Positions 731 through 57,300 of a DNA stretch of 64,000 bases are shown in pieces; within the stretch, counting starts at the first letter, position 1; each line of letters starts with the position of its first letter. Below the pieces are notes generated by a model. That model worked only from the letters and a program-made list of their open reading frames with translations. It was not told where the DNA came from and searched no databases. Source of the DNA: a virus; the IMG/VR virus record IMGVR_UViG_3300050020_000061. One strand, written 5' to 3'. The position numbers were made by a program, and so were the translations under genes.

Positions 731-733
731 GAG

Positions 734-1860: not shown

Positions 1861-1880
1861 TGGCTACTCCTTGTTGAGCC

Positions 1881-15098: not shown

Positions 15099-15127
15099 TT
15101 GACATCCCAACATGGTCCGTATAGGCT
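15099..15127 (+). promoter_or_regulatory. sigma-70/HrdB-type promoter candidate for the rightward block
   Basis: TTGACA (15099-15104), 17-nt spacer, TAGGCT (15122-15127; TAnnnT). The spacer contains CCCAACATGG, which is also found in the 22203 promoter. Confidence 0.55.
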
Positions 15128-38724: not shown

Positions 38725-38924
38725 ATGCGGCGCTTCTTCGGCCGAGCAGAGAGCAACTCACTACCACAGTTGGGGCAGGCGATCATCTTGACCCCCGGCA
38801 GCTTGAGCCACCCGAAGCCACACTCTGGCTTCGGGCAGCGCATCGGCAGGCCGTAGTCCTGTGAGGAGATGTGCGGCCTGTCGAGGTAGTTGGAGACGTG
38901 GCGGCCTCCGCCGCCCGCGCTCAC
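38721..38924 (-). CDS. small zinc-ribbon protein (start uncertain)
   Basis: CPKPECG...CPNCG. No convincing RBS for either candidate start. Confidence 0.35.
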   Translation of the reverse strand: MSAGGGGRHVSNYLDRPHISSQDYGLPMRCPKPECGFGWLKLPGVKMIACPNCGSELLSARPKKRRM

Positions 38925-38955
38925 GTCAGGAGAGGGAGGCGCACCCCGTAGGTGC

Positions 38956-39291
38956 TCACTTGGCCGTGGCGACGAAGGAACCAGTCACCTTCTGGATCAG
39001 TGTTGCGACCTCGCCAGCGAGTGCAGCCACCGCGCCTGCGATGTACGCAGCTTCAAGTGCGGTCTTGGCTGCGCCGTCGGTCACGAAGTAGGAAGCGATC
39101 CCGAGACCCGCCAGAGGGATGACCTTCTGGAGAACGGTCGAGTCGAGGATCTGGGGAAGCTTGCCCCAGTCGAAGACGCCCTGCTGGATGGAGCGGTACA
39201 CGCCCAACAGCAAGTCCACGATGGTGATGACGAGCAGGGCGTAGAGCGGAGCGACCAGAGGGTTGTTCAGGAAGTCCGTGATCTGTGTCAC
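38956..39291 (-). CDS. holin (three predicted transmembrane segments)
   Basis: GTG 39291 after AGAGGTG. LVAPLYALLVITIVDLLLGVY, VIPLAGLGIASYFV, AAYIAGAVAALAGEVATLI. DLLLGVYRSIQQGVFDW resembles phage_holin_4-type holins. Confidence 0.6.
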   Translation of the reverse strand: MTQITDFLNNPLVAPLYALLVITIVDLLLGVYRSIQQGVFDWGKLPQILDSTVLQKVIPLAGLGIASYFVTDGAAKTALEAAYIAGAVAALAGEVATLIQKVTGSFVATAK

Positions 39292-39343
39292 GAGTGGGCA
39301 CCTCTTATGGAGCTGCCCCTCCCGAGTGCCGCCTGACGACAGG

Positions 39344-39829
39344 CTACACCATCCGCCACGTCAAACGAAGGTCAACGCCACGGATTGTCGCTCGAGCCAC
39401 TCCGAACCGACGAGCCAGATCGCCTCGCTTGGCCCCCTGTGCCAGCTCGCTCCTGATCTGGAGAACTCCCTCTCGCGTCAACTTCGTCGTCTCGTGACCT
39501 GACCCGCTGGCGATGTAGCCGCGCCGCCGTCCCTTCTCCATCATGTCGCGAGCGTTGTCCTTGGCGGTCCCGAGCCAGAGGTGAGCCGGGTTGCAGCACG
39601 GCGGGTTGTCGCAGTGATGGAGCACGAGCATGCCGATGGGGATGGGGCCGAAGACGATCTCCCACACGTACCGATGGGCACGAACGCAACGCGGGTGGCC
39701 GGGGTTGAACAGGCCGTAGCCCTTGGCGCTTCTGGCCGCCATCCACGGCCAGCACTCGTCAGGCCCCCTGAGTCCGTCTGCCCCGAAGCAGTCAACCTTG
39801 CTCCAGAAGCGTTGCGTTGTTGCCGTCAA
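39344..39829 (-). CDS. HNH homing endonuclease (HNH_3-type) with C-terminal HTH
   Basis: TTG 39829 after GGGAGGAC. ECWPWMAARSAKGYGLF...RAHRYVWEIVFGPIP...VLHHCDNPPCCNPAHLWLGTAKDN. C-terminal HTH RGDLARRFGVARATI. Confidence 0.8.
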   Translation of the reverse strand: MTATTQRFWSKVDCFGADGLRGPDECWPWMAARSAKGYGLFNPGHPRCVRAHRYVWEIVFGPIPIGMLVLHHCDNPPCCNPAHLWLGTAKDNARDMMEKGRRRGYIASGSGHETTKLTREGVLQIRSELAQGAKRGDLARRFGVARATIRGVDLRLTWRMV

Positions 39830-40223
39830 GTGATTGTCCTCCCGGTGCCACCGGGGACACGATAGCACGCGATCCGGGCGTCAAGCTCCCATTCAACACC
39901 CTCTCCGCGAACTTCTCCTTGGGGTAGCCCCTCGCGAAGAGGAAGTGGTACTCCTCGTCCGTCAGCCCTGAGATGGTCATCCACGCCCGCGCTGCCCAGA
40001 ACGGCTCGTCACCCAGTCGGGCGATGCCGATCCAACGCATGGTCGGGCCCAGTACGGGCAGGAGGTCGCGCAGGGCCACGTAGGCCCACTCGCACGGGAT
40101 CTGGTGGGGGTCCTCCCCGAACTCGTGGGCGTAGGCGAAGTCGATAGCCGGGTCGCACGAGATGTACTGCTTGAAGTGGTCAGCGAACTCGGCGAACGTA
40201 CCGAACTCTGGTCCGAACATCAC
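39792..40223 (-). CDS. hypothetical protein (143 aa); its 3' end overlaps the HNH gene start
   Basis: ATGA coupling to the upstream gene. The C-terminal about 25 residues look low-complexity and may be altered by the HNH insertion. Confidence 0.5.
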   Translation of the reverse strand: MMFGPEFGTFAEFADHFKQYISCDPAIDFAYAHEFGEDPHQIPCEWAYVALRDLLPVLGPTMRWIGIARLGDEPFWAARAWMTISGLTDEEYHFLFARGYPKEKFAERVLNGSLTPGSRAIVSPVAPGGQSLDGNNATLLEQG

Positions 40224-41251
40224 AGCCCCCTGATGTCGAGCGAGTTGAGGCGGTTGCTGCCCGCGTTGGTGTCGACGGTGCGGGCCGTCCTCTGGCCCTG
40301 ACGCAGGGTCGCGGCCACCACGAGGTAGGTGACGATCACCCTCGACAGGGACTCACAGGGCCCGCTGATGTCCCTCAGGAGACGGTACGCCAGCCCTGTG
40401 GTGTCGCATGGGTCGTTGTCCCAGTCGAGTCCCCTCATGAGCATCAGACCCTTCGGGGTGTAGACGTTCAGCGTGCCTCTGGCGGGCGAGGTCGTGAGGG
40501 TGAAGATCCTGTGCCCAGCCGGGTCCGTCGAGACCCTCGCAGTGTCGGTGCCCCAGCCTTCGCTCTGGTTCTCGAGAGACAGGGAAGCGGAGGTAGCCGT
40601 GGCCTCGGAGCGGTCGCACAGGTCAAAGGTCCACGTCGACTTGGTCATGCCGCCGCCGGGTGCGATCCCGTGGCTGAGACCGAAGTGGCCCCAGAAGCCA
40701 GTGTTCTGCTTGGACATGTCACCGACGGCAGCGTACTTGGGCCCGATCCCGATGTTCTCCTTGCTGCCACCGTATTCGTTGTTGCCGAAATAGCGGTTGT
40801 TCAGGTAGCCGTACAGGAGGCCGCCAGCTCCGAAGCCCGTCCCGACCCCCGGCCAGTACCCTCCGGGGACCGGCACCAAGAACTCGGTGACCGCCTCGTA
40901 GTGGAGGGTCGTCGGCATCGCGATGGAGTCGTGCATGAGGTTGTCGACGTCCGTCGAGGGCACGGTGGTGTAGGGCTGGAGGTGCCACTGGCCGCAGTCG
41001 AAGTCGGTGGCACCCATGTCGGGGATGATGTGGGTGCGCCTCATTTCCCAGATGCGGGCCGTCTTGAACTGGGCCGGGAACGGCAGGATCCCCGCATTCA
41101 ACTGCTCCCCTGTGTAGACAAGCTCCCCGTCGGCGTACAGGTCAGCGTCGGTGAGGCCTGTCCAGCTATCAATGAGGATGATGCCGGGATGGTCACCCAG
41201 CGCGTTCCAGAAGCGGCGCTGCCCGACCTCGAAGGCTCCGGGGTTCGGCAT
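40220..41251 (-). CDS. minor tail / receptor-binding candidate (343 aa)
   Basis: Follows the giant tail protein with a 1-nt gap. Gly/aromatic-rich beta-type composition. No motif recognised. Confidence 0.5.
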   Translation of the reverse strand: MPNPGAFEVGQRRFWNALGDHPGIILIDSWTGLTDADLYADGELVYTGEQLNAGILPFPAQFKTARIWEMRRTHIIPDMGATDFDCGQWHLQPYTTVPSTDVDNLMHDSIAMPTTLHYEAVTEFLVPVPGGYWPGVGTGFGAGGLLYGYLNNRYFGNNEYGGSKENIGIGPKYAAVGDMSKQNTGFWGHFGLSHGIAPGGGMTKSTWTFDLCDRSEATATSASLSLENQSEGWGTDTARVSTDPAGHRIFTLTTSPARGTLNVYTPKGLMLMRGLDWDNDPCDTTGLAYRLLRDISGPCESLSRVIVTYLVVAATLRQGQRTARTVDTNAGSNRLNSLDIRGL

Positions 41252-41252
41252 G

Positions 41253-44200
41253 TCAGGCTCCCGTGACGTCCATCCCGAGCCCCGGCGTCGACATGCCGGG
41301 GTAGGGGAGGAAGTCGTAGATGTTCCACGGAGCCTCGGGATCGAGGCCCATGGTCAGATCGTACTGGGGCAGGGCGTAGAACTTCTCGCCCACGGGCTCC
41401 TTCGCCACGGTGAAGGTGATGTGGAGCTGGCGGATCACGAGGTTGATGTCGATCCCGTAGACCGAGGACTTCACGTTGATCACCTGACCAGCCTGATAGC
41501 CGGGGTCCCAGACGGTGGCGGTCGCCATCATGATCGGGTCGTCGTAGCGCAGCAGGATCGACCGAGCGCGGATGTCCAACCACTTCTGGTGGAAGATGTC
41601 CTGCCTGAACTCGGCGTACTGCCAGCGGCCGTACAGGTCGAAGGACGCCACCTCAGGGTGGGCTCGAGCGTTCGCGAGGTTCGCCTTGTAGATGATGATC
41701 CTCGCCTGATGCGCGGCCAGCGTGGTCTTCTGGTACACGCTCCTCTTGGCTGCGGGGACGGCGAGGATGTTGTTGATGTAGGTCTGCTGGGCCACGACGG
41801 CCGCCAACCAGTACCGCTCCCTCCAGTGCCCGTCACCCAGCTCATGGGTCACGAGGATCTCACCCTCGACCGTCTTGCCGAGGGTGCCCCACACGAGGAC
41901 GTCGTTCATCATCTGGCTGATGTCGGTGGTCACGGAGAGGGCGCGGGAGCTGATGCCCCCCAGCCCATCGGTGAGCGGGTACGGGGCCGTCACGGTCGCA
42001 CGGTCGTGGTACTGCAGCACCATGTAGGGGTCGATGCACCACACACCTGCCGTGATCTGGCTCACCGACTGCATGAACACCCGCAGAGGGGAGCCGGGGT
42101 CCGGCATGACCCACGGTGACTCGGGGGCCGGAGTGGCGACCGGGAACACGCCCGACTCGTAGTCGAAGCCCATGGGGAGATCAGGCAGCAGGTACGTCTT
42201 GAAGACGTACTCGATCATGTCGTCGTCCATGGTGCCCTTCTTGAAGGCAGGCCAGTTTCGGTAGGGGCCAGCGTCCCCGCCCGTCTTGTGGTGGTTGGCG
42301 AACTCCCACGGCCAGTTGCGGACGACGAGGCGGTCGAACAGGATGTTGTAGTCGACCCCGTGGAGCACGGTCTTCGGTGCCACGGCAGCCTCGAAGAAGT
42401 AGCCCCTCTCCACGTCCGTGACGAAGCCACCGAACACCCTCAGGCCGTCGATCTCGAAGTGGATCTCCTCGCCCCCGACGAACTCGTTGTGAGCGCCCTT
42501 CATGGTGATCGTGAAGGTGCCGGGGCCGGTGCGGGCCATCTGGGTGAACTCGGTGCCGCTCCAGATGCAGTCCCCCGTGATCTCGACCCACGTCTTCTGG
42601 GGCTCACGCGCCATGCGGAGCCGCATGAGGTCGTAGTTGTAGGTCTTCAGGTCGATCTCGTACGCAGCCTGCTGGGCGTCCGTCGGATCCTTCACGGCGA
42701 GGTAGGTGTCGAGGTAGGCCCGCATCTTGCTGGTCGCATCCATCCAGAACTCGCTCGGATCCTGATAGCGGGCGACGAGCAGCTCCTTCTGGAGCCATGC
42801 GATCTGCTCGCGGAGGTCTTTGATCGCCGCGTTCTCGGCTGGGATGCGCTCGTCCACGGGGATGCAGAGGAGGGCGTCGAGGCGTGCCTGCAGAGCCGCG
42901 ATCTGGCGCAGGATCGAGGCCACGAGGTCCATGTCGGCCTGTGGCAGGGGCTGGGCGAAGCCAGCCTCGATCTTGACCGCGAACTTGCGGGTGAGCATGG
43001 GCGGGTTGCCGAAGGGATCGGTGGGAGCGCCGCCGTCACCGGGGAAGATGATGTAGCTGCTGCCCCTGACGTAGGCACCGATGGTGAAGCCGCCCAGCCC
43101 GCCGCCCTTGGGCGCGATCCACGCGTCGACCGTGAACCATGGGGCCACCATGGCGTCGAGGGAGAACCCGGCGGGAGGCAGGCAGATGTAGGCGGCGAGG
43201 TAGAACCTCGAGACCCGCTCGATGGACACGACAGCGTCGATGGAGACCCCGCCGCGCATGTCGCCTATGGACACGATCTCTGCGTCTATGTGCATCTGGC
43301 TCATAGGCGTCAGATAGGCCTTCCACGCCTTGATCGTGAAGCTGCCCGTGCCCGCGAACTGGACGGGCACGAGGAACGCATCGATGGTCAGGAAGGGCTG
43401 GATGTAGGCGTCGATGGTCACGCACGGCTGCCAGACCACCGCATCCATGGTGAAGTGCTGGGGCACGATGGTCGCGAAGATCTTGAAGAACGAGAACTCC
43501 CTGCCCCGAATGCTGGCATCCAGCGTCCACGAGCCCCGCTTCTCGCCCTGAGCTGACACATCGGCAGCGAGAGTGAAGGCACCCTGCTTCTCGCGGCCCA
43601 CGATCTCCGCGTCGATGGTGATCGGCTCGCCCATGGTGCCCACGATCCACGCATCGATGGTCGGAGCTGGGTGCGAGATCACGACGTCGTCGTAGCGGTA
43701 GCGAGACCAGATGGCCGAGCCGATCATTGAGGGCTCGAAGGTCCCGGTGTTGTTCAGGTAGACGTACTTGGGCTCGCTGTAGACCGGGATGGCGGTGAAG
43801 ACCCAGCCGCCGTTGTCCATGGGTACGAGCGAGGTGCCCCACTCCCCGCCCGTCATGCTCTGGTACGGGGCGCACCACTGGTTCTCGTTCGTCGACGCGA
43901 GACCGAAGTCGTTCTCGGGGCGGCCGGGGCCCACTGGCATCTCGTAGATGTAGAAGACGACCGGCAGGTTTGGCACCGCGTCGAACGGGCCGAAGAGAAT
44001 GTTCGGGTAGATCGTGCCGAGAGCGATACCGTCGCGACCGGGGAAGTCGAGGCGCTCCGTGATCTGGTGGAGGACGCGGACCACCTCGCCCTCGCCCTCG
44101 TAGACCACCGTGTGCTCGCTCGAAATGAAGGCCTCGATGTCGAAGCTGGTCCGCACCACCGAGGTGATCTGGGCGTCGATGAACCAACTGGTGATCGGCT

Positions 44201-46685
44201 GCCCCGGCAGGATGATCGCGGCCTTGATCGTGAACGAGCCGGTGGGGTGGGTAGCCTTGACCGCGTCGATGTAGAAGTGCGGGTGCAGCCACATCTCCCA
44301 GTACTGGTCCCAGTACGCGGAGGCGTCGTACTTCTCGGCGCTGATCGTGAAGGACCCGGTCCCCTGACGGCGGCCCTTGATCGCGAAGATCGTGAAGCGG
44401 GACTGCTGGTCAGGGGCGTAGATCACCGCGTTGATGAGGAAGCCGGTGATCCCCGCGCTGATCGTGAAGCTGCCTGTCGGGCGGCGGACGATGGCCGCCC
44501 TCAGGGTGGTCGACCCATACCCGTGGCTCAGGACGAGGGCATCGATCCCGAAGGAGGGCTGGACGAACGCATCGATGGAGAAGCTGCCGGGGATGATGTT
44601 CGAGACGTAGGCATCGATGAAGATCTCGAAGGACCCCGGAATGGAGCCCTTGAAGATGACCGCGTTGATGCGGAAGTAAGGCTTGATGACGGCGTTGATG
44701 GAGAAGCTCGAGGCGATCCCCGAGTTCTTCCACGCATCGATCTTGATGCCACGGTCATCGTGCCGGTAGTAGGTGATGACCTTGGCCGCACGGATCTCGA
44801 AGAACGGCTGGATGTAGGCGTCGACCGTGAAGGTGGCGTAGACCGGGTTCGTGATCCACGAGGCAATGTGGAGGGTTCCAGCCTGAGAACCCGTGACAAT
44901 GGCCCTGATCGAGAAGTAGCCACTGATGAAGGCCCCGACCGTGAAGGAGCCTGTGACCTTGCGGATGATCCATGCGTCGATGGGGATCTCGCACTTGATC
45001 CACGCGTCGACCGTGAAGTGGCGCGGGACGATCCGGGCGTCGATCCTGAAGAACGGCTGGATCCATGCTGCGACCGGGAACGCCGAGACGACGCGGATCT
45101 GCTTGAACGCATCGAGCGTGAAGTCGAAAGCGAAGGTCCAGACGAAGTTGGCGTCGATGGTGAACGTCGGGCTGATGAACGCGTCGATGCTGAAGTGCAG
45201 CGTCGAGGTGTTCCAGTCCTTGTAGGACCCGAGGCCCGTCAGGGACGGCCGGTAGACGTTCCCCTTCGAGGAGTAGACCCGGTAGGAGCCGGGGATGGGG
45301 AAGACGAAGTGCTCACCCGGCGTGGTCGGGATGGAGTACCTGATCGCACCCGTCGAGCTGATGATCCCCAAGTCCCCGCCGTCACTGGGCGGGTTGACCA
45401 CCACCACCACAGCAGGCTTGCCCGCCTCGACAGAGACGGAGGGGGACAGGATGTTGGCCGTCTGCCCGAGGTAGGTGGCGCTCACCCCCGGATAGGCGAG
45501 GGCCTTCTGGGTGGGACCCACCGTCGCGAGGATGACCGCATCGAGCTTGAACTCGAGGCAGATCTCCGCGTTGATGTAGAAGTACGGGTGGATGTAGGCG
45601 TCGATGTAGAAGAACGGGACGTGGAACGCATCGATGCTGAACGACGCCGTCTCCGTCGCCTTCTGGACAGCGTCGACCCTGAAGTAGGGGTGGATGAAGG
45701 CGTCGATGGAGAAGCGCGGCCGAATGACCGCGTCAATGGAGACCGAGCCCGTCTCCGCCCTGAGCTTGATCGCGTCGACCCTGAAGAAGGGCTGGATGAA
45801 GGCGTCGACGAAGAAGACCTGACCGAAGACGGAGTTGATCGTGAACGACCCAGCAGGGGTCGCCTTGATCGTGGCGTCGACGAGGAACTTCTTCGGGACG
45901 AGGAGAGCGGCGATGGAGAACGAGCTGGTGCGCTCCGCCTTCAGGGCAGCCCTGATGCGGATGGCCTGACGTGAGGACTGCACCTGCACGCTGCAGCCGG
46001 GGATGAGTGTCTCGCCCGAGTAAACGACGTAGGTGACCGTGCTCGACGTGAACGAGTCGGTGTCGATGCCCGTGGCTGAGAACGTCCGCGCCCCGACATA
46101 GAAGTCGGACGCGCCGCTGATCTTCAGGACCGAGAGGACGTACTTGCCCGTGGTCGGGGCTTCGTCGACGAAGGACCCGACGGCGTGCCACTGGTAGCCG
46201 CTGGAGTTGTCCCCGTAGTCCCAGCTACTGCCCTGTGGGTCGCTGGTGGCGAGCAGCTCGCCGCTCAGGTTGTCCCGGCGCAGCAGGATGATCTCGTGCT
46301 TGAAGACGGCCACCTGCGAGTGGCTGAACCAGACGTCCCACGAGATGGAGACGGGGACGCCAGTGGCCTCCATCGTCCGCAGGGCGATGGCGTCCAGCGT
46401 GAAGCGCGGCATGATGACCGCGTCGGCGGTGAAGGAGCCAGTCCGCGTGAGGCGGATGACGGCCGCGACCGTGAAGGATCCGCCTCGAGTCGCCTTCAGA
46501 ACCGCGTCGATCTTCGCCCAGCGAGCGATGAATGCGTCGAGGGTCAGGCTCCCCGTCTGGGTGCTTGGACCTCCGCCTGAGACGTCCTGAAACGCATTGG
46601 CCTGATACGCGCTGTCCTGAAAGGCGTGGAGACCGTTGTCGAAGACGGTCGCAGCGAAGACGCCGGGGTCGAAGATGCCGCTCAC
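41253..46685 (-). CDS. giant minor tail protein (1810 aa): N-terminal about 1200 aa is a degenerate F-x-I-D-A repeat array with three globular insertions; the C-terminal about 600 aa is a paralogue of the 46784-48385 tail protein
   Basis: GTG 46685. Example repeats: SFSIDAFISPTFTIDANF, QPFFRIDARIVPRHFTVDAWIKCEIPIDAWI, HPYFRVDAVQKATETASFSIDAFHVPFFYIDAYIHPYFYINAEI. C-terminal matches to the neighbour: VLHGVDxNILFDxL, TTDISxxxNDV, GRxQxAE, IRARS. Confidence 0.8.
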   Translation of the reverse strand: MSGIFDPGVFAATVFDNGLHAFQDSAYQANAFQDVSGGGPSTQTGSLTLDAFIARWAKIDAVLKATRGGSFTVAAVIRLTRTGSFTADAVIMPRFTLDAIALRTMEATGVPVSISWDVWFSHSQVAVFKHEIILLRRDNLSGELLATSDPQGSSWDYGDNSSGYQWHAVGSFVDEAPTTGKYVLSVLKISGASDFYVGARTFSATGIDTDSFTSSTVTYVVYSGETLIPGCSVQVQSSRQAIRIRAALKAERTSSFSIAALLVPKKFLVDATIKATPAGSFTINSVFGQVFFVDAFIQPFFRVDAIKLRAETGSVSIDAVIRPRFSIDAFIHPYFRVDAVQKATETASFSIDAFHVPFFYIDAYIHPYFYINAEICLEFKLDAVILATVGPTQKALAYPGVSATYLGQTANILSPSVSVEAGKPAVVVVVNPPSDGGDLGIISSTGAIRYSIPTTPGEHFVFPIPGSYRVYSSKGNVYRPSLTGLGSYKDWNTSTLHFSIDAFISPTFTIDANFVWTFAFDFTLDAFKQIRVVSAFPVAAWIQPFFRIDARIVPRHFTVDAWIKCEIPIDAWIIRKVTGSFTVGAFISGYFSIRAIVTGSQAGTLHIASWITNPVYATFTVDAYIQPFFEIRAAKVITYYRHDDRGIKIDAWKNSGIASSFSINAVIKPYFRINAVIFKGSIPGSFEIFIDAYVSNIIPGSFSIDAFVQPSFGIDALVLSHGYGSTTLRAAIVRRPTGSFTISAGITGFLINAVIYAPDQQSRFTIFAIKGRRQGTGSFTISAEKYDASAYWDQYWEMWLHPHFYIDAVKATHPTGSFTIKAAIILPGQPITSWFIDAQITSVVRTSFDIEAFISSEHTVVYEGEGEVVRVLHQITERLDFPGRDGIALGTIYPNILFGPFDAVPNLPVVFYIYEMPVGPGRPENDFGLASTNENQWCAPYQSMTGGEWGTSLVPMDNGGWVFTAIPVYSEPKYVYLNNTGTFEPSMIGSAIWSRYRYDDVVISHPAPTIDAWIVGTMGEPITIDAEIVGREKQGAFTLAADVSAQGEKRGSWTLDASIRGREFSFFKIFATIVPQHFTMDAVVWQPCVTIDAYIQPFLTIDAFLVPVQFAGTGSFTIKAWKAYLTPMSQMHIDAEIVSIGDMRGGVSIDAVVSIERVSRFYLAAYICLPPAGFSLDAMVAPWFTVDAWIAPKGGGLGGFTIGAYVRGSSYIIFPGDGGAPTDPFGNPPMLTRKFAVKIEAGFAQPLPQADMDLVASILRQIAALQARLDALLCIPVDERIPAENAAIKDLREQIAWLQKELLVARYQDPSEFWMDATSKMRAYLDTYLAVKDPTDAQQAAYEIDLKTYNYDLMRLRMAREPQKTWVEITGDCIWSGTEFTQMARTGPGTFTITMKGAHNEFVGGEEIHFEIDGLRVFGGFVTDVERGYFFEAAVAPKTVLHGVDYNILFDRLVVRNWPWEFANHHKTGGDAGPYRNWPAFKKGTMDDDMIEYVFKTYLLPDLPMGFDYESGVFPVATPAPESPWVMPDPGSPLRVFMQSVSQITAGVWCIDPYMVLQYHDRATVTAPYPLTDGLGGISSRALSVTTDISQMMNDVLVWGTLGKTVEGEILVTHELGDGHWRERYWLAAVVAQQTYINNILAVPAAKRSVYQKTTLAAHQARIIIYKANLANARAHPEVASFDLYGRWQYAEFRQDIFHQKWLDIRARSILLRYDDPIMMATATVWDPGYQAGQVINVKSSVYGIDINLVIRQLHITFTVAKEPVGEKFYALPQYDLTMGLDPEAPWNIYDFLPYPGMSTPGLGMDVTGA
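43065..46560 (-). repeat. coding tandem-repeat array (about 11-residue / 33-nt period, highly degenerate)
   Basis: GCGTCGATGG / GCATCGATGG / GCGTCGACC strings recur on the plus strand every few tens of nt. On the protein they give h-x-(I/V/L)-(D/N)-A-x-(I/V). Confidence 0.75.
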
Positions 46686-46700
46686 ATGTCACCGGACACA

Positions 46701-46727
46701 ACAAAAGAGCCCCGCCGTTCGGGGCTC
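46701..46727 (-). terminator. intrinsic terminator between the two minor tail genes
   Basis: Minus strand: GAGCCCC-gaacggc-GGGGCTC followed by TTTTGTTGTG. Confidence 0.7.
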
Positions 46728-46740
46728 CTCGTCGTTCTCG

Positions 46741-46778
46741 CCATGGGATTGGCCTTCATTTCGACCATGGGATTGGCC
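46741..46778. repeat. 14-nt direct repeat CCATGGGATTGGCC x2 (24-nt period)
   Basis: Copies at 46741-46754 and 46765-46778, between the stop at 46784 and the terminator. Confidence 0.85.
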
Positions 46779-46783
46779 GCCGA

Positions 46784-48385
46784 TCAGACTGCGTTGGCGT
46801 CCAGATTGTGCCAGACGTGGTACTCGACGTAGACGCTCTTGGCTGCCTTCAAGAGCTGGAAGGTCCCGAGGTCTGGACTGGTCTCGAGGAACCCCGCTCC
46901 ACCCGCGCTCTGCGGGTCGGGCACGCTCGTCAGGCGAAGCCCCTGTGCCACCACCGTCAGGCTGTCGCGGACGTAGGCGTAGGTGAGCTGCCACTTGTTC
47001 CCCGACATCGGGGTGGCCCACTCCTTCACCAGCACCATCGGTGAGGCCACGATGTAGGGGTAGTCAGTTCCGTACTTCGAGCGGTCGATCACGTTGAAGT
47101 TGGGCTGGACGAGGCCCCTCGCCGGGGGACGCTTCAGGGCGAGGAGCAGGCCCCACGGATCCTGCGTGTCGAAGCTGCAGGTGACCCGGTACTCCACCGT
47201 CGTGGGAGTGGGGAAGCTCATGTCGATGGCGCGGACTGGCAGGTTCACCCCGCTCTTCGTCTGCGGACCGAACACCGGGTCGTAGGTGGTGAAGGTGTGG
47301 ACCCCCGAGAAGATGCTCACGATCTGGCCCGGATAGAGACCGTGCTTGTAGATCGTGAACTCGGCCCGCATCGCAGGCACGCCCTCCTGATTGAGGATCT
47401 TGTTCGACCTCGCCCTGATCATCCCCGCCAGCCAGTCGGAGCCCATGGTCTCGGCCCACTGGAAGCGGCCGTACTGGTTGACCGAGGCCGCCAGTGAGTT
47501 GTGGACGTAGAGCAGGAACTCCTGCGTCGACGTTGGAGTCGGGTCGAGAGAGCCGGTGAAGATGATGACGTCGTTCTTGAGGCGGCTGATGTCGGTGGTG
47601 ATCGTGAGGGACTTGCAGGCCACGCTGCCCTCGTTGTCTCCAACGGAGAACGGGGCCCAGTCGGTGTCCTGCTCCTTGTAGACGATGTAGCCCTCGGGGT
47701 CGATGTACCAGATCGAGGACCCCGGCATGCTCCTCAGGATGTTGGCCGAGACGTCGGTGAAGAATGCCCTCAGGGAGGTCCCCGCAGACGGTGGGGTCCA
47801 CGTGGCACCCGTGTCGCCCGTGTTGATGACGGCGACCTCGTCGATCCGGCTGTCAGCGGGGTTGAGCTGGCCCCACTTGATCAGCGGGCTGACCTTGTCG
47901 AGGTCGAAGCTGGTCAGCATCTTGGTGATGTACGCCTTGTCGGTGGTGCCCTTGGGCACCGCCACCACGTAGCCCGAGATCTGGCCGTTGGTGGTCACCT
48001 TCTGGCGCTTGTACCCACCCAGCCCGGTCTTCGGGTTGCTGCCATCGGGATACCACGTGGGCTTGAAGCGGTTGTACAGGTACAGCTTGTCGAACAGGAT
48101 GTTCAGATCGACACCGTGCAGGACCATGCGCGGCTCAGGTGCGTCGGGGAAGACGTAGCCCTGCTCGAGCACGAACAGGTAGCCCCACCACATCCTCACG
48201 CCGTTGATGTAGAGGGCGATCAGATCCCTCCCCGGAGAGAAGGTGTAGAGAGCCCTCAGGGTGACGGTGCAGGACCCCGGCTGGGCTGCAGCCACGGCCT
48301 GAAAGTTGGTTTGGCTGAAGATGACGTCCGCCGTGACATCGGTCGTCCCGACCGTGATCGTGACGACCGCCTCCTCGACGTCCAT
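46784..48385 (-). CDS. minor tail protein (533 aa; distal-tail/hub position directly after the tape measure)
   Basis: I trimmed the start to ATG 48385 (MDVEEAVVTITVGTTD...), overlapping the tape-measure stop by 1 nt. Paralogous to the C-terminus of the 1810-aa protein. Confidence 0.75.
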   Translation of the reverse strand: MDVEEAVVTITVGTTDVTADVIFSQTNFQAVAAAQPGSCTVTLRALYTFSPGRDLIALYINGVRMWWGYLFVLEQGYVFPDAPEPRMVLHGVDLNILFDKLYLYNRFKPTWYPDGSNPKTGLGGYKRQKVTTNGQISGYVVAVPKGTTDKAYITKMLTSFDLDKVSPLIKWGQLNPADSRIDEVAVINTGDTGATWTPPSAGTSLRAFFTDVSANILRSMPGSSIWYIDPEGYIVYKEQDTDWAPFSVGDNEGSVACKSLTITTDISRLKNDVIIFTGSLDPTPTSTQEFLLYVHNSLAASVNQYGRFQWAETMGSDWLAGMIRARSNKILNQEGVPAMRAEFTIYKHGLYPGQIVSIFSGVHTFTTYDPVFGPQTKSGVNLPVRAIDMSFPTPTTVEYRVTCSFDTQDPWGLLLALKRPPARGLVQPNFNVIDRSKYGTDYPYIVASPMVLVKEWATPMSGNKWQLTYAYVRDSLTVVAQGLRLTSVPDPQSAGGAGFLETSPDLGTFQLLKAAKSVYVEYHVWHNLDANAV

Positions 48386-51300
48386 CAGACGGCTGGACCA
48401 CGCAGGCCGAACATCTGGCCCTTGCGAGCGAGGGTCTTCTCTACCTCGGCCGCCACCTGACGCGCCAGATCCGTGATGTCCTGATCGTTGCGAACGGAGG
48501 TCCCTGTGATGTTCACCGTCAGGTTCATCGGGCCCACGCCACCGCCACTGGGAGCGAGAGTGGCGGCTCGCGGGTTGCGGAGGATCGCGACCGCCTCGCT
48601 GCCAGCCTCGCCGATCATGGCGTGGGTCGGCATCGAGGTGATCCCCACTGCACCGGAGGCGATCCCGAAGATGCGCTTGTAGTAGGGGTCCACCCCACCG
48701 GCCTTGGCGAGGCCACCGGGGCCGAGGTGCCACGGGGAGCGAGCGATGGCGTTGAGCTGGGCGTTCGCGCTCTGGCCCACCGTGCCCATGATCCCCGAGT
48801 AGTACGAGCTGGACTTGATCAGGTTCGCGGCTGCGGCAGCGCCTGCCTCAGGGGTCGCGAAGCCAGCAGGCTGGCCCGGACCCTTCATGATCCCGAGGTT
48901 ATTCAGGGGCCCGACCTCGGCCTGCGCCCACTTCCGTGAGGCTTCGACCGTCAGGCCGGTGTTCTTGGCGAGGGCCGCAGCGAACCGATCCAGCCGCTCG
49001 TTCTTGGGGAGGTTGGCCGTGGTCGAGGGAGAGAACGAGGGGGCGGCGACCTTGGGGTTGGCGGCCTTGGGGTTGTCCCCCGGAACCGTCGGGGTGGCGG
49101 CGGCCTGAAGATCCGAGATGGCCTTGGCGAGGGAAGCCACGGACGCGTCAGCGAGGACGACCTTGGGGAAGCTGGTCTGGATGGCCCGCATCCAAGCGTT
49201 GATGTTCGTGTCCGTCAGGGCCACGTCGGTGGGGCCGTTGTTCCCCGTCAGCGGACGAGCGTTGCGGATGATCGCGACGGTCTCGGGGCCAGCCTCGCCC
49301 ACGATCATCTCGGTGGCGTGACCGATGCTGCCGAGGAACCCGGCCGCGTTCTTCTTGCCGCCGCCGCCGCCGCCCGAGGAGACAGGGGCGTAGCCGGGGA
49401 CCACCACGACCGGAGTCCCAGTGGATCCGAACCCGGAGGTCGGTGCCGTCAGGACGGTATTGCCGCTCTTGTCGGTCGTCTTGGTGTAGCCGAGGGCCTC
49501 GTAGACGGCCTTGACCCCGTCCTTCACGGAGCCAGCGAACTGCCCAACACCCTGCGCGGCAGCGGACAGGGCGTCTGACCAGTTGCCCGTGGCCGTCCCG
49601 AGGATGGCGTTCATGCCCGCCACCTTGGTCGCCAAGATCGCCTGCTGCTTGGCGATGTTCTCCTGCGCCGTGATCGCGTAGCCCTCGGCGTTGCGGGCCA
49701 ACTGCATGTTCGTGATGGCCTTGGAGGCGTCGAGAGCGGCACGGTTGGCGTTCTCGTTCCAGATCTTCTGGCCGAGATCGAACTGCTGGGTCGCGATGTT
49801 GAGCTGCTGCTGCTGGATCGAGGCCTTCTGGATCGCCTCGACCTGAGCGAAGTACCGCTCCTCTCCCGTCTGTCCGGGGGCGGAGAACTGGGCCTGAGCC
49901 AGAGCCGTGGTGATGCTGCGCTGCTGGAGCTGCAGGCTCAGGCTCTGGTTCATGATGTCCAACTTGTGGGACATTCCCTGCCAGATGCCGAGCTGGGTGG
50001 CGGTCCCGCTCACGCCGGAGGTGTTCTTGATCCCGGCCCCAGAGATGGCACCGAGGGCGTCCCCCACGGCGCGGCTGGCGAGGCGGATCTGGTTGTCCCA
50101 GTTGAACTGGCTCGCCTCCTGATTGAGCTTGCCCATCTTCGTGGTGAGATCGGCGATCTTCGCCGACGACACGTTCGCCTGAATGGCGAGCACCGCGAAG
50201 TCAGGCAGGGAGGCCGGGTTGAACTGCCCGACCTTCGTGAGCGCCTCGAACAGGCCCTTGCCGGAGATGGCAGCCAACTGGGAGTTGGCGGCGGCCGTGG
50301 ACGCCAGCGACTGCTGGGCCATGCCCGCAGCGGGGCCGGTCAAGCCGGTCGCGGTCGCGCTCGGCCGACCTGTCTCAGCTCCCTTGAAGAACCCGAGGCC
50401 GGGGGCCACCAGAGGCTGCTGGAGCAGGTTCTGGGTCATCTGGAAGGGGATCTCGAGGGCCATGGTGAGCTGCTGCTGGGCCTGACGAGACTGCTGCTGG
50501 GCCTGAAGCTGGCGGATGTTCAACTGGGCCCAGACGCCGGGGTCGACGAGGTTCTTCCCGGCTGCGGTCTGCTCGATGGCGTCCTGATGCTGCTTGATCT
50601 GATCGGCTGCCGTCTTCGAGCTGTCGACGATCTGGCCGTTCACCTTCATGACGATGTTCGACTGCATCGCCAGATTGGCGCTGTACGTGTCGCCAGCCTT
50701 GGTGGCGATGGCGACCGCCTTATCGACCTCGTCCCACGACTTGGCGACTTCCCACGTCACCTTCACGGACTTCTTGCCGGAGACCTCCATGTTCTTCCCG
50801 GCCCGATCAGCGGCAGACCCGAGATCGTTCAGCGCGTTGGTCCGGGCATTCACGTCGATCTGACCCATGCCGATGTTGGCGTCGAACTTCGGGAGCTGGG
50901 CAGCCTTCTGCTCGGGGGTCATCTGGTAGTTGGAGCTGTAGTTGCCTGCCCCGATGGATCCGATCAGCGCCCCGGCGATAGCGCCGATGGCAGTCCCCGG
51001 ACCCGGCAGGATCGAGCCGATGGCCGCCCCTGCCAGAGCGCCACCCACGCCACCAATCGCGGTGCTCGCGCCTACGTCGCCGGGTGTCGCCATCCCGGCC
51101 GCCTTGGCCTTGTAGTCGATGTACGCCTGCTCGTTGGGGCTGGTGACGTAGTTGGCCCCGGTAGCGATCTGGTTGAGGGTCCCGGTGACGCCATTCCCGC
51201 CGGTCTCAGCCTTGCTGTAGCCGCTGAACTGACCGGCAACGGTCTCCATGAAGCCCTTGCCGCCGCCCATCTGCTCGGCGAACAGAGCGGACCCGAGAAC

Positions 51301-54300
51301 GCCTCCGTAGCCCCCGTAGAGGCCCTGAGGCGGCCCTGTCTGGGACCCCATCGAGGCGCGGAAGATGTCGGCCGTCGCCTGCTGGGCCTTCTGCCCCGCC
51401 TTGGCGGTGACGGACGCGTCCAGAGACGTGGAGACGAAGGCGAGCATGTCCTTCGACAGCCCAGCCGTCACGGCAGCCTGAGCCATCGTCGCCTGCATGT
51501 TCCCGTGGGACTCGTAGGTGGCCTGAGCGAGGGCCGAGGTGGCAGCCGTGGACGTCGACCTGAAGCCGGTCATCTGGTCGACGAACTTGCCAGCCGCCTC
51601 CGACCCGGCGTCGATGCCCTTGCTGGCGAGGGACATCGCCATGCCGTAGACCGTGGTGGCACCGATGACCACGCCGAGGTTCCGAATGATGTTGCCCGTG
51701 CTGGGCTGCATCTTGACCGTGGTGGCTCGGAGATCGTCGAACTTCGAGATCACCTTCCCCAGCTCACCGGGGGCCTTCTTGTACTCCTCGATGGACCTCT
51801 TGATCGAGTCCCGCTCCTTGCCACGGGCACCCATCAGGTCGGCCTGAAGGTTGACGTACTTGTTCAGCTCTGGGGCGGTCTCAGGAGTGACGAGGCCAGA
51901 CAACTGGCGCTGCTGGTGCCGCGCCTCGGTCTGAAGCTGGAGCATCTTGCCCCGGCCACCGAGCCCCATGGAGGCGAGCTGGGCGATGCCGCCTCGCGGG
52001 GTGCGCCCCGACATCACCTGCTGCCACGCGCTCGACTCACCCATGATGTCGGCGAGGGTGCCCTTGAACTCCTTGTAGGCATCAGCCTGCTCGGGGGACA
52101 CCGCTGCGCGACGAGCAGCGCCCATGCGTGCCGAGGCTCCCTGCATCCCACGAGGTGCGCGAGGAGCGCGACCACCACCCATGGCGGCCTGCACGTCAGC
52201 GCCCTGCTGCTCGATCCACTCCTGATACGCGCCGGGGTTGTTGAAGCCACCGGCCGGAACGGTCGGTCCAGCGGTCGGCGTGGCCTGAGGGCGATGACGA
52301 GGCGAGACCCTCTCGGTGGGCGGACGCGAAGCCTCGCGGCTCCGCATCAGGGCGTCGTGCTCGCGCTGCCAGACGGGATCACCGAACAGGGCAGGACCGC
52401 TCGTGAGCTGCTCGTCCGTGAACTTCCGGCCGCCTCTGCCGGGGCCAGCCGTGGCGACACTGGGCTGCTTGGCCGCCCTCTGCACGGGGAGGATCAAGCC
52501 AGTGAAAGCCGCCTGCAGCTTCTCGGCGGCGAGCGCCATCTCGTTGATGGGGGCCGCCATCTTGCCTGCGGCCTCGGCGGCCGGAGTCAGGATCGGGCCC
52601 GTGGACACTCCGGCTCCGGGCTTGGTGAGGCCCAGCGATGCCAGAGTGGCGGTCGACGGGGCGAAGGAGGGGCCCGGAGGAGGCGTGCGCGGGATGGCGA
52701 ACATGTTCTGGGGGGTGCGGAGACCACCGTGCAGGGTCTCGAACTCCCTCGCAGCACGCTCCCTGATCTTCTTGTAGGGGTCGACCTTGCTCTGCTGGAA
52801 GGCGGCCTCGAGCGTCTCCCCTCCGTCCTGACGATGGGGCACGAGGTGCATCAGGCGGTTGGGGACGATGATCCCGTCCTCGGGGGGCGCGAACAGGCTG
52901 TTCGGCTTCTGGCCGATCACCTGCATGCCGCCCTGCGCCTTCGGGATCTGGTCCATGACCTTCTTGGGGATCAGGGGCGTCAGGGGCTTGGGGACGAACA
53001 GCTCCCTGCCAATCTCGCCGACGATGTACAGGCCCTTGCCGCCGGGAGACAGTTCCTTCGCGGGAAGGTTGTTCTCGAGCGCACGTCGCACCCATGGCGA
53101 CATGACGGGACCACCGCCCTCGCGACCAGTGAACTTCGCGAAGATCTCGGCTGCCCGCATGCGCTGCGGATCCACCCGCTCGAGCGAGCGGTTGGCCGAG
53201 GCAATCCGGGTGAGCCCGGGGCTCTCGATCAGTCCGCCGATGGCGCGAACTGCCGCCTCCGCGTCGGTGCCGGTGGCACGGAGCCGGAGCTGGTCACCCT
53301 GCCGCGCACCCAGCGCCAGCAGGTGGTGCATGTACTTCGCGTCGACCACGCCGCGCTGCGGCATGCCACGGGTCAGGTTCTCGACGCTGATGAAGGCGTC
53401 GAAATCGGCCGCCATCCTCGCGAGGTGGGCCGAGGGACGCATGTGGAGGCCGAGCTGGTCCGCGACCGTGAAGAGATGGCTGACCGGCCCTCCGCCCTCG
53501 CGGTAGATCTTCGGGGGGAGCTTCGACGTGCGGGCGCGCTTCAACCACTCGGGCTCGAAGGGCTCGACCGGCTTCGGCATCTCGACCTTCGGAGGCTCGG
53601 GCAGGCCGAGGATGCGGCGCTGCAGTGGGCCCAGAACGGGGCCCCCCTCGGCGTGCCCTCCCTTGGTCCAGTTGGTGCCGTAGACGCCGCGCATGTAGTT
53701 CCCGGCCAAGGCCCGAGTCCAACGTCGGGGGTCATTGAGACTCCCCATGGTCTCGTTCCAGCGCCGGTCGCCGACCAGCGTGCCACCCGTGAAGGGAAGA
53801 GGCGCTCCGACGAAGTCCTCGTTCAGGCGGGGAGGTCCGACACGCTCGATACGCTTGGGATTGAAGACACCAGCGCGGTACTGGCGCAGGCGCTCGCGAC
53901 GACGCTCCCAGTCGCGGTTCGGCACGTACCCGCCGCGAGCCTTGTGCTGGTCCGCCTGCTGCTGCCACGCCATGATCGCCATGAAGGGATCGTTGGCCCA
54001 GTCGGCAGCGGTCTGGAACATGGACGAGACGAACCCGGGCTTGGCGATCTGGTTGAGGGGCGGAGTCATGCCCCCCAGAGCAGGGCCACCAGCGGCCCGA
54101 TGGAAGGGGATCTCGAGCCCCGGATGACGCGGGATCGAGATGCCGCGCTGGGTCCTGAGCCAGTCCGTGCCGAGGCCAGCGCCCTTGTGGGCGGCGTTGA
54201 CGTTCGTGTCGAGGCCAGACCAGAGGATGGCCTGAAACTCGCTCAGGTTGTGGAGGTCCCACCGCTTCGCGTACTCGGGGTAGAGATCCTCCATCGCCCC

Positions 54301-57300
54301 GATGCCGAGCTTGCGGATCATGTCGCTCCCGGCGGGAGCCTTCCAGAAGGTCTTGCTGTTCGGGCCGGTGTGGCGACGAGCAGCGGTGATGATCTGGGAC
54401 ATGCGGGAGTCGTAGGTGATGGCGTTCGGATCGAGGCCAGTGATGTTCTGGAACATCGCGCCGCGCTTGGGCCCAGTCGGAGAGCCCTCGCGGCCCATCA
54501 AGAACGCCCATGCGTCCTCGATGGGGCCAAGGCCCCGACCGGCGGAGAAGGACGTCTCGCCGAACCCGGGCACGTTGGAGCTGCCGGAGGTCTGGGGGAC
54601 TCCGGTCTCGAGCAGGTGACGGACGATGGCGCGGTTGGAGCGCCACTCCTGCCCCGACGATGCGGCAGCGAACGCGCCGAGCCCCGACAGGGCATCCATC
54701 CCGAGGGACTGCCAGCTCGTCTTCCCGCCGATGATCGGGTCCATGAGGTCGCCCACGGCCTGCGCGTGAGCGATGGTCCACCAGTCCCGGGCCTCGTTGA
54801 CCACCTCGGGCTTGATCGTCTCGGCGTGGGCACGGATGTTCGCATGGAGATCGCGGGCGTTCTCAGGCAGCCGCATCAGGCCACGGAGGGGGTTCTTGGG
54901 AGTGGAGGATGGCACCACCCAGCCGCCGTCAGCTCGGAGGCCGATGCTGCTGGGGGCGAGGAGAGCGCCGCGAGGGGCGTCGACCGGCGAGCCCGAGAGG
55001 CCCACCAGCTTGTAGTGGCGCTTGCTCTGGGGACCGCTGCTGATCGCGTAGGCGGGCACGGTCTCGAGACCCAGTCGACGAGCCACGGCGAGGCGATGAT
55101 TGCCATCGTCGACCATGGCCGCGTGGTGCGACGGGTCGTAACGCAGGGCGATGGGCTTCTGGATGCCACGCGCCGCGATGTCGCCGGTCAGCTCACCGAG
55201 ATCGGTGGCACCCTGTCCGGTGCGTGGGTACGTCTCCCGGTCCTCGCGGAGCAGGGGCAGCAGAGTCGACAGGCGGACGTTCTCGACCATTCCCCCCGAC
55301 TCGCGCTTGCGGCCAGCCATGATGAGCTGTTGGATCCGCTCGGCGTTGGCGCGCAGCTTGTGGCCGCTGGTCGGGATCTCGTCGAACCGCTTCAGGTCGA
55401 AGAACGCGAGCTGCGCCTTGGCGCGAGCGACCATGTCTGCTTCGCGCTTGCGGCCAAGGACAGCGGCGGGGTCGATGTGGATCTGGCCCTCGTGGAGCCA
55501 CGTGCCGACGTACGGCGGGAAGCTGCCAGCCGCGAGCTGGGACTGCTTCTGGGCGTTGAACTGCTTCAGGAAGTCGCGGAAGTTGTTGGGGTCCTCGACG
55601 AGGTGCGACGTCCCGGTCGCGATGCCGACGGCGTAGCCCTTGGGCGGCTGCGGCCCACCGGAGAGCGGGAAGGTGCCGCCCTCGTTCTCCATCGTGGCCC
55701 GGTAGGCCATGGCCCCGAACCCGGCCTTCTTGATGTTCCGCAGGATCCGCCACGACTCGATCTCGCCAGCAGCGTTGTGGAGCTGCACGGCATAGCCGCG
55801 TCCGACAGGAGCCACGCCCACATACCCGCCCGGGGCGGAGTGGTCCTGATAGTGGTTGATCGTGTCCTGAATGGCGTGGTAGAGCCCCTCGGGACGCGGG
55901 GCGTAGTGGCCCCCGCCACCGGGCAGTCGGCTGATCTCGACCGCGCCACCGCGAGCGCGGAAGCGCACGCCGGGGCGGTCGGGAATGAACTGGTTCTCAC
56001 CGAATGCTGGGGCAGGCTGGGGAACGTGAGCGCGAGGCTGAGTCGAAGGGTTCCATTCCGAGGTGGCAGTCCATGGACCGTTCTCCCCATAGGAGACACG
56101 TCGCATCTGCTCCTGCGGGTCGTTGCGGCGCTGCGCTCGGGTCCGGGCCCTCGTCGGGAGAGGCTGGCCGAACGCAGGAGGCTCACGCCGTGGGGCTCGG
56201 GCGGCTGCAGCCATTTCGATGGGTGACAGCGACGGGCCGGGGAGCGGGGGGACATTGCCCAGCCCACCCCACGGCCTGCCGCCCGCCAGAGTCTCTGGCC
56301 GATGCGCGAACGAGATGTGAGCATCGAGACCGGACTGGGCGAGGAATGGACCGGCCGCCGTGCCGCACGTGGGGCACAGGAGGTTCTGGCTCTGACGGAT
56401 GGCCTGCGCTCGGGCTCGCTGGACAGGATCGTATGTCGTGGGGCCTTGGCCGGATGCTGCCTGCCTGCGCTGGTACTCCAGCGTGTAACGGTCGTACTCT
56501 TCCTCCCGCCGTGCCGTGGACAGGATGCGGGCATCGACGGGCCGGTCCCCGAAGATCTTCCCGAACGGACGATCCTTCTGCGCCCAGAACGCCTTGCCGC
56601 GTGTGAGCTGGACGCTCGAGGGGGCGATGGGCCTGCCGGTGAACCGCTCCGTCTTGACGTAGGCGGCTGTCGCCAGACCCTTCCTGCGGTGCTCGACACC
56701 CGTGATCGAGTAATCAGGGTGGAAGCTCCCTGCGGGAGTGGGGACGCCCCACTGCTCAGGATCTGACCTGTAGCTGAAGGGGAAGGTCGCCGCGACCTTG
56801 TCGCCCTTCATGACGATAGCGACGAGCCCCGCTGCATAGTCCTTGGACAGGATCACGGGCTTCTTGACGGGCTTGAACCCGGGCCCGGGCTTGTCCAGCC
56901 GCCCACCGAAGTTGCGGATGTCGAAGTCGTTGCTCTGGGGGCTGTAGAACTCGATGTGGTAGCCCTTGGGGAGACCACCCTTGTGGGCTGGCCCGCCATG
57001 GGCACGAGCGGAGATGTTCTCTCCACCCTGCAGCTTGGCCGCAAGAAGCTCCAACTGGCGGATCTCGGACTCGCTGTAGCCGCCACGGTTGGCGGCCACA
57101 CGGCGCTTGCCACGCTGCTGGATCTGGTACTCGAGGGCAGCCAGCTCCGCTTCCGCCTTCCGCAGGCGAGCCTGTTCCCTGTGATAGGCGTTGATGTCAG
57201 GCAGAACCATGCCCGATGAACGCGGGCGAATGATCTCAGGCCCGCGCTCCCCCACCAGAACGTCACGTCCCTGCTGAACAGCGCCACCATGGGCCCGGGT

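Follow-up and report, generated by a model that had tools for sequence, protein, structure and literature searches.

The question raised by the viral DNA analysed here, a stretch of 64,000 nt from IMG/VR record IMGVR_UViG_3300050020_000061 (hereafter the window), is what use a phage makes of a protein of 1810 amino acids (aa) in which dozens of copies of a short repeat are joined to a domain that the neighbouring gene encodes a second time. The protein is encoded on the minus strand by an open reading frame (ORF) at 41253-46685, with a GTG start at 46685 and the stop codon at 41253-41255, and a first-pass annotation made from the sequence alone had described it as a tail protein. The answer proposed here, to which we give a probability of about 0.6, is that the gene would encode a structural component of the tail tip in an uncultured siphovirus of high GC content, and that this protein would act as an adhesion shaft that is anchored at the tail hub and contacts the host with its variable N-terminal end. 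The host of the phage is probably actinobacterial.

The C-terminal part of the protein shows its relationship to known tail components. In BLASTP, aa 1367-1796 align with residues 15-420 of the 533-aa protein encoded directly upstream (26% identity, E 4e-30); the paralogy claimed by the first-pass annotation is thus upheld, but over ~430 aa and not the roughly 600 aa proposed. The intervening segment of adapter and helical region (aa 1214-1366) is lacking in the 533-aa paralogue, and its adapter (aa 1214-1250) is conserved in both fused and unfused relatives. An AlphaFold2 (AF2) model of aa 1211-1810, built from a 100-sequence alignment of both paralogue families, reached a predicted local distance difference test (pLDDT) value of 85.6 and a predicted template modelling score (pTM) of 0.80. 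It shows, in this order, a docked short strand in the adapter, four helices (aa ~1252-1360) and a beta-rich body, in which a two-helix insert (aa ~1621-1675) is without counterpart in the paralogue. A Foldseek comparison of this model with the PDB returned 53 matches at E<=1e-3, all of them hub, Tal or VgrG proteins. The best match was the MuSo2 43-kDa tail protein (3cdd; E 2.6e-15, template modelling (TM) score 0.68 on the target), and Mu gp44 (1wru) was found at E 4.9e-13; the others include Listeria gp18 (3gs9), 80alpha Tal, hubs of contractile injection systems, VgrG, T4 gp27, the Bxb1 tail tip, T5 pb3 and lambda gpJ. The BFVD database added 306 matches, including Mu gpP, P2 gpD, proteins named "43 kDa tail protein", a tail endopeptidase and minor tail proteins of Microbacterium phages. 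On the basis of the model and these matches, the "minor-tail domain" of the first-pass annotation can be kept and refined to the baseplate-hub fold of gp27, Mu gp44 and Tal. The phage is therefore described here as having, by sequence and model prediction, two tandem copies of the hub fold: hub 1, the upstream protein, and hub 2, the C-terminal module. Hub 1 lies directly after the tape-measure gene, where a hub gene is expected, and hub 2 is the next gene or module after it, in the window as in five relatives. The assignment as a tail protein is supported.

Sequence profiles hardly reach this fold, for which Pfam has the families YQBQ-like (PF24032) and PF05954. YQBQ-like gave E 0.18 and 11.6 bits for hub 2, against a cut-off of 27, and left hub 1 unmatched, while some hub 1 homologues pass it (31.1, 30.9 and 28.9 bits). 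Hub 1 found no match by tblastn in 50,697 records of cultured phages, sequence searches of the PDB with the hub and with a hub profile returned nothing meaningful, and Pfam, PHROGs and NCBIfam gave nothing for the 1810-aa protein, its paralogue or its 343-aa neighbour.

Forty relatives of the 1810-aa protein were found among 5.8 billion clusters, all of them metagenomic and labelled only "hypothetical protein". In a relative deposited at NCBI (L003), a 1446-aa repeat protein ends in a different module of ~190 aa, and hub 2 is a separate 537-aa gene, 66% identical to aa 1283-1810 of the window protein and followed by the orthologue of the 343-aa gene of the window. The split layout, with the repeat protein and hub 2 as adjacent genes, is also present in L008 and L009. 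Since relatives keep the two parts as separate neighbouring genes, the window protein represents a true gene fusion, as had been proposed when the repeats were described as fused to a duplicated tail domain. Fusions of the window type occur in at least eight independent clusters from JGI, ENA and Logan, and at the junction (~aa 1283-1289) a module of ~183 aa and ~8 codons of hub 2 are replaced by a direct join. That two genes occupy this place in close relatives would also fit an artefact of assembly or gene calling that joined them into one long ORF. This explanation is, however, highly improbable: the identical 1810-aa product is present on at least two contigs of different samples, JGI having called it on two independent ones (L001 and L002), fused architectures recur in distinct clusters of all three data sources, and the frame runs uninterrupted through a junction that is a clean replacement. 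The ORF reported earlier at these coordinates is thereby confirmed, on the minus strand.

The conserved module at the end of the unfused repeat proteins (P0005, aa ~1264-1446; P0009-P0011 and P0013-P0020) carries the motif GDIDDCW(L/V)VATVWAA. A calpain- or papain-like peptidase was considered for it, as GDIDDCW looks like a cysteine-peptidase motif by eye, and was dropped for want of support from Pfam or PDB sequences.

In five relatives the giant tape-measure gene is followed by hub 1, then by the repeat protein and hub 2, and last by a protein of ~390 aa. In P0012 the 343-aa module is additionally fused to the C-terminus of the hub. That the repeat protein, hub 2 and the ~390-aa protein are fused to varying extents speaks for their lying next to each other in the virion, and the 343-aa protein is, from sequence comparison, a probable component of the distal tip. 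C-terminal extensions beyond the hub were observed in some relatives (P0012, P0022 and P0024); the window ORF ends with the hub.

The part that precedes the adapter is dominated by the repeat. Units were identified with a position-specific matrix grown from strict [FWYHL]-x-[IVLF]-[DN]-A matches, with 200 shuffles of the same protein giving the chance level. Between aa 47 and 1200 there are 53 non-overlapping copies of F-x-[IVL]-[DN]-A-x-[IV], compared with 0.51 on average and at most 3 in the shuffled sequences, and a relaxed core matrix finds 58 units. The several dozen degenerate F-x-I-D-A repeats of the first-pass annotation are thus present, at 53-58 copies in aa 43-1213 against 0.5 by chance, and the periodicity on which that description depended has statistical support. 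An independent control profile, made only of three-unit stretches from other proteins and including no window sequence, was run against every six-frame ORF of the window and matched only the 1810-aa one (E 1.2e-45 with 23 domains, the next best ORF reaching E 0.53). The consensus is [IV]-x-[GP]-S-F-[TS]-[IVL]-D-A-x-[IV], with conserved core positions F0, I2, A4 and I6; alanine is present in 52 and phenylalanine in 44 of 54 units, and both positions are invariant across orthologues. The period is not the "about 11 residues" first estimated: two unit lengths coexist, with spacings of 10 (17 cases) and 14 residues (13 cases) and only four of 11, and the alanine autocorrelation has maxima at lags 10, 14 and 24. 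The shorter form reads F-x-I-D-A-[FVY]-I-x-P-[FYW], the longer one F-T-[IVL]-D-A-V-I-K-x-T-x-T-G-S. Short tandem units whose strands alternate between buried and exposed positions, as in these arrays, are a feature of beta-helical or beta-solenoid phage fibre shafts.

The array is split into four blocks by three non-repeat inserts, whose existence had been recognised earlier and whose limits are shifted here to aa ~104-251, 388-493 and 857-1003. Inserts 2 and 3 are confident beta-domains in AF2 (pLDDT ~83 and ~75, respectively), whereas insert 1 came out at a pLDDT of ~22 with no secondary structure. In relatives, Laminin_G_3, F5/8 type C (discoidin), FG-GAP, GH16 and PPC domains are inserted in the repeat arrays. 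Conservation is distributed unevenly along the protein. N-terminal to ~aa 350, alignment occupancy among orthologues is 0.34-0.73 and identity 21-39%, and the length of this part ranges from ~100 to ~1,580 aa. By comparison, aa 351-1197 are collinear, with occupancy mostly above 0.9 (lowest 0.86) and identity mostly 35-66%; the number of units is kept throughout this core, and insert 3 is its least conserved part. A conserved hub-proximal and a hypervariable hub-distal part are the pattern expected of a host-recognition device anchored by its C-terminus, and this hypervariability, together with the lectin-type domains in the arrays of relatives, is why we read the protein as an adhesin. The (A/V)-F-(Q/D) motifs of the short N-terminal cap are common to relatives and to a second repeat protein of the same phage. 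In P0008, P0013-P0015, P0018, P0019 and P0027 the cap is replaced by a repeat of a type unlike AFQ, (R-V-T-Q-x-A-V-E-A-V-I-A-P-T-x-x-x)n.

The protein thus arose when two adjacent tail genes were joined in frame. One of these encoded the repeat protein, read here as a modular adhesin or shaft in which each unit would contribute a single beta-strand (F-x-[IVL]-[DN]-A-x-[IV]) followed either by a three-residue x-P-x turn, in the 10-residue units, or by a seven-residue K-x-T-x-T-G-S loop, in the 14-residue units. The other encoded the second of two tandem hub-fold paralogues of the T4 gp27, Mu gp44 and Tal type. According to the reading proposed here, the hub 2 module would place three copies of the protein at the tail tip, below hub 1, and the 343-aa protein would bind distally, at the C-terminal side of the hub. 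The repeat blocks could then serve as stiff beta-structured spacers, projecting the three beta-sandwich inserts and the hypervariable N-terminus outwards, where these may bind glycans of the host envelope. With the C-terminus on the virion and the N-terminus distal, the polarity would be reversed relative to that of usual fibres.

Several points weigh against this reading. AF2, run on aa 1-1197 with an alignment of 20 homologues, returned every repeat block at pLDDT ~22 and without secondary structure, so that the "beta-solenoid or fibre-like shaft" of the first-pass annotation is a possible fold and not a shown one. The inserts of the window protein gave no significant Foldseek match from the same model, with TNF/C1q-like, lectin and jelly-roll matches only at E>=0.02, and glycan binding is consequently argued from relatives only. 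In known Tal and BHP proteins extensions are found at the C-terminus and not at the N-terminus, whereas here three N-terminal arms would have to leave a hub trimer. A Dit (distal tail protein) was sought in the last 1,200 residues of the giant tape-measure ORF and none was recognised there, so the order in which hub 1 and hub 2 are stacked is conjecture. The phage is uncultured, and incorporation of the 1810-aa protein in the virion is presumed. Finally, the higher-order regularity of the array is not shared by the family. Units of the window protein do group in threes: aa 267-368 show the pattern 14-10-10 three times over, aa 581-779 in block 3 hold five triplets of 38-42 aa each, and Tandem Repeats Finder reports a 102-nt (34-aa) period at 45579-45817 in block 2. 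At variable positions, identity at lag 3 is 0.204 versus 0.152 +/- 0.018 in shuffles (p=0.0026), and unit-length classes agree at 0.72 and 0.73 at lags 3 and 6 versus 0.39-0.47 at other lags (p=0.008). In 38 family members outside the window subfamily, on the other hand, agreement at lag 3 is not raised (mean excess -0.003, p=0.63), for which reason a family-wide three-unit periodicity was rejected as a structural signature; the triplet is at least partly duplication history and, as a sequence pattern, weak evidence for a three-sided helix. A two-unit (beta-hairpin) super-repeat was not supported either, agreement at lag 2 being among the lowest of the lags tested. Many trimeric beta-helix fibres end in an intramolecular chaperone, Peptidase_S74; Pfam gave no match to it, even at E<=10, for the window protein or for the module that ends the unfused repeat proteins.

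The same observations bear on what the repeat blocks form. Low AF2 confidence (pLDDT ~22) is typical of disorder, and the arrays have been considered as extended, flexible spacers, possibly O-glycosylated, with neighbouring glycosyltransferases modifying the Ser/Thr-rich loops. The T-x-T-G-S loops of the 14-residue units fit this idea, as does the location of a 498-aa repeat protein of the same phage, and of giant repeat proteins of relatives, inside glycosyltransferase/epimerase clusters. The repeat is, however, strongly hydrophobic (A 12%, I 12%, F 9%, V 7%), and its invariant Ala and Phe positions and the conserved unit number of the core are features of a packed fold. Composition and invariant positions argue for packed beta-structure over disorder, and glycosylation of the loops would be equally compatible with a folded shaft; we therefore consider a flexible spacer improbable. 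Within a folded shaft, a multi-sided beta-helical assembly formed jointly by the three chains is put at just short of an even chance, and a minor share is left to other folds. The blocks may instead form a monomeric beta-solenoid in each chain, giving three separate lateral arms and no joint trimeric fibre, a tentative but serious alternative. The N-terminal extension sits where, by the established structures of gp27 and Tal, the three chains of such a trimer should end apart from one another, the helices of aa 1251-1366 are confident in the monomer, which suggests an intramolecular bundle over a trimeric coiled coil, and the 34-aa (102-nt) triple unit behaves as a unit of duplication, as whole solenoid turns often do. 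AlphaFold, on the other hand, usually models monomeric solenoids readily and gave no secondary structure here, the 10-residue units are ~60% hydrophobic or aromatic on both strand faces, suggesting more burial than a lone solenoid offers, and no turn periodicity is common to the family.

The proposed hub-anchored shaft can be compared with several known systems. In the canonical siphophage core, tube, Dit and hub are present as tube6:Dit6:hub3, and fibres are attached to the trimeric hub (PMC13252515). The hub and Tal proteins of siphophages (Mu gp44, T4 gp27, 80alpha Tal, and the mycobacteriophage BHPs Claus gp18 and Corndog gp59) share with the window protein the fold that its aa 1367-1810 adopt in the model (TM on the target 0.62-0.68), a gene position directly behind the tape measure, and an adhesion device or fibre on the hub. 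They differ in that Dit is accompanied by one hub, whereas here there are two tandem hub paralogues, an N-terminal extension of 1,200 aa, no lysin domain and no profile membership. Among viral fibre shafts, the C-terminal triple beta-helix of T4 gp5 has an 8-residue repeat and the triple beta-spiral of adenovirus and reovirus one of ~15 residues. Such shafts resemble the array in their short periodic units of one or two strands with alternating buried small or hydrophobic positions, in their Gly/Pro turns, in globular domains that interrupt the shaft and in a trimeric anchor; the array differs in its motif, in its periods of 10 and 14, in the lack of profile or PDB-sequence similarity and in having no Peptidase_S74. 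The "evolved" Dit and Tal proteins of lactococcal and Lactobacillus phages carry inserted carbohydrate-binding modules. As in the relatives of the window protein with Laminin_G_3, discoidin, FG-GAP or GH16, a core baseplate protein bears the adhesion modules, but those of the relatives lie inside a long repeat array and not in the hub or Dit fold.

The repeat is not confined to the tail tip. A 42-column profile identified 924 clusters (50% identity) at E<=1e-3, of which 253 at E<=1e-30, among 1.84 billion proteins. Members are 283 to 2953 aa long and have 6-71 units, the distant ones being almost purely 14-residue arrays (TGSFTANAVIKATR). Two genomic contexts were found within one phage clade, which has portal, major head, AEP primase and AAA_25 helicase types in common: the tail tip, and a giant repeat protein between the portal and the protease/major head genes, in a cluster of epimerases, methyltransferases and glycosyltransferases. 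In IMG/VR, 32 repeat loci were found on 23 viral contigs, seven of which have two or three loci. The phage of the window has both contexts. Contig L042 (75 kb) shows no difference from the window as far as the window edge, and ~7 kb past window position 1 it encodes a 498-aa repeat protein (L042:18515-20011) in a methyltransferase/glycosyltransferase cluster between portal and head genes; this protein matches the A5 repeat profile at E 3.2e-91 and opens with an AFQxNAFQ motif like the 1810-aa protein. The head-module proteins (P0029, P0038, the 2075-aa protein of L004 and the 498-aa protein of L042) share the repeat and this start with the tail protein, and the large ones carry lectin-type inserts as in tail-tip relatives; they differ from it in having no hub module and only the regular 14-residue period.

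The earlier statement that the repeat belongs to no named family is consistent with all searches made. The window protein and the most regular arrays had no match in Pfam, NCBIfam or PHROG, and profile searches for Phage_fiber, Phage_fiber_2, collagen, pentapeptide, haemolysin-type Ca-binding and bactofilin repeats found none of these. Only traces were seen on the arrays of relatives (Bactofilin in 5 and DUF2430 in 6 of 54), and in the example detailed no stretch passed alone. No PDB chain matches the regular array or the repeat profile. The gene had no match by megablast or tblastn in the same cultured-phage records, where tblastn of the regular array P0029 matched only through its Laminin_G_3 insert, and a full-text literature search with the motif strings retrieved no relevant paper. 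A scan of 185,579 species genomes with the consensus peptide gave a single match, a phage-like contig of 71 kb binned with a metagenome-assembled genome of Lysinibacter (Actinomycetota).

Tail-tip and fibre proteins set the host range of phages, and most knowledge of them comes from cultured ones. The hub fold, the modular logic of adhesins and gene fusion are known themes; the repeat family, its deployment in both head and tail, the polarity of the N-terminal extension and the tandem hubs are without earlier description. Taken jointly, these could define a clade of uncultured phages of ~70-78 kb with a new fibrous fold, a universal lectin-swapping scaffold at head and tail tip, and a tip of reversed polarity in which two hub-fold trimers are stacked and the distal one bears an N-terminal shaft, a combination that we consider doubtful as a whole. 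Neighbouring glycosyltransferases might modify the repeat shafts. If confirmed, a double-hub tip with an N-terminal extension would depart from the conserved 6:6:3 core of tube, Dit and hub. The repeat family, with at least 924 clusters, no member in ~50,000 genomes of cultured phages, no curated family or solved structure, and arrays on which AlphaFold fails, represents a concrete target for structural work on fibrous folds. The natural series of fusions and fissions of the repeat protein, hub 2 and the tip protein yields information on interactions in an uncultured virion, and the lectin-like inserts swapped between relatives may be of use in the engineering of receptor-binding modules.

In the gap between hub 1 and the repeat gene, a terminator-like hairpin (46730-46704, minus strand) precedes the GTG by 18 nt and so lies upstream of the gene. 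The hairpin that the first-pass annotation called an intrinsic terminator is therefore real and unusually conserved, with its limits shifted from the 46701-46727 given there. Its stem has 11 base pairs, 7 of them G-C, and is followed by UUUUGUUGU; upstream lie two exact GGCCAATCCCATGG boxes (46741-46754 and 46765-46778, 24 nt apart), which are found nowhere else in the window. In 50-nt windows, identity to L008 is ~84-96% across the gap and 92-96% as far as the end of the boxes, versus ~75% for the hub 1 gene and ~40% for the start of the repeat gene, and the stem is kept while the loop differs. Conservation so far above that of the flanking genes implies that the element is under selection; the gap is lacking in L007 and L009. 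Since no sigma-70-like promoter was found downstream of the hairpin, the gene is probably expressed by read-through, and from its sequence the hairpin may plausibly attenuate expression of the repeat gene. The island adjoins the boundary of the hypervariable region exactly and may, as far as sequence can suggest, be a recombination boundary.

Table 1. Coordinates of the 1810-aa protein, its segments and the adjoining features in the window.
Feature	Residues (aa)	Position	Strand	Remarks
Whole ORF	1-1810	41253..46685	(-)	GTG start; identical product in two JGI gene calls
N-terminal cap	1-42	46560..46685	(-)	short (A/V)-F-(Q/D) motifs (AFQDSAYQANAFQD)
Repeat block 1	43-103	46377..46559	(-)	5 units
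Insert 1	104-251	45933..46376	(-)	non-repeat; among relatives only in P0005 and P0012
Repeat block 2	252-387	45525..45932	(-)	12 units, 14-10-10 x3
Insert 2	388-493	45207..45524	(-)	beta-rich domain (pLDDT ~83), conserved in P0002-P0020
Repeat block 3	494-856	44118..45206	(-)	~28 units including degenerate ones
Insert 3	857-1003	43677..44117	(-)	beta-rich domain (pLDDT ~75)
Repeat block 4	1004-1213	43047..43676	(-)	~15 units
Adapter	1214-1250	42936..43046	(-)	SSYIIFPGDGGAPTDPFGNPP...KFAVKIEAG; one confident beta-strand
Helical region	1251-1366	42588..42935	(-)	four helices of 20-25 residues, pLDDT >90
Baseplate-hub-fold module (hub 2)	1367-1810	41256..42587	(-)	predicted from BLASTP, AF2 and Foldseek
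Intergenic island, 98 nt		46686..46783	(-)	hairpin, UUUUGUUGU, two GGCCAATCCCATGG boxes
Upstream paralogue (hub 1), 533 aa		46784..48385	(-)	starts at the tape-measure stop codon
Downstream 343-aa protein		40220..41251	(-)	always follows hub 2 in relatives

Among the neighbouring genes, the tape-measure ORF (48385-57738, minus strand, 3117 aa) includes a PTS-HPr domain, matched by Pfam over aa 1422-1505 (E 3.2e-18) and also present in L008. The ORF further holds in-frame equivalents (aa 1907-2171, 2521-2670 and 2702-3117) of three genes that are separate in L007 (518, 167 and 425 aa), so successive tail genes were apparently joined on more than one occasion in this phage. L001 has an extra gene for a 137-aa HNH_3 endonuclease (L001, 17945-18358) compared with L002 and with the window at ~38800-39300; the difference looks like a presence/absence polymorphism of a homing endonuclease, in which the window resembles the contig without the gene. 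A further HNH gene lies at 39344-39868. At 28467-30744 and 15112-16452, both on the plus strand, lie a replication module with an AEP-TOTE-type primase and an AAA_25 helicase, both shared with L007, and a 446-aa protein ending in DUF6011. Related contigs are 75.0-75.9 kb long, and ~11 kb between the portal and the head gene, comprising the glycosyltransferase cluster, the second repeat protein and a protease, fall outside the window; a plain linear contig would carry this stretch ahead of position 1 and, past position 64000, the head gene. Terminase and portal lie at 1-5186 and the major head gene at 62345-63688, all on the minus strand, and with these genes at the low and high ends, respectively, the gene order requires a circularly permuted or rotated assembly.

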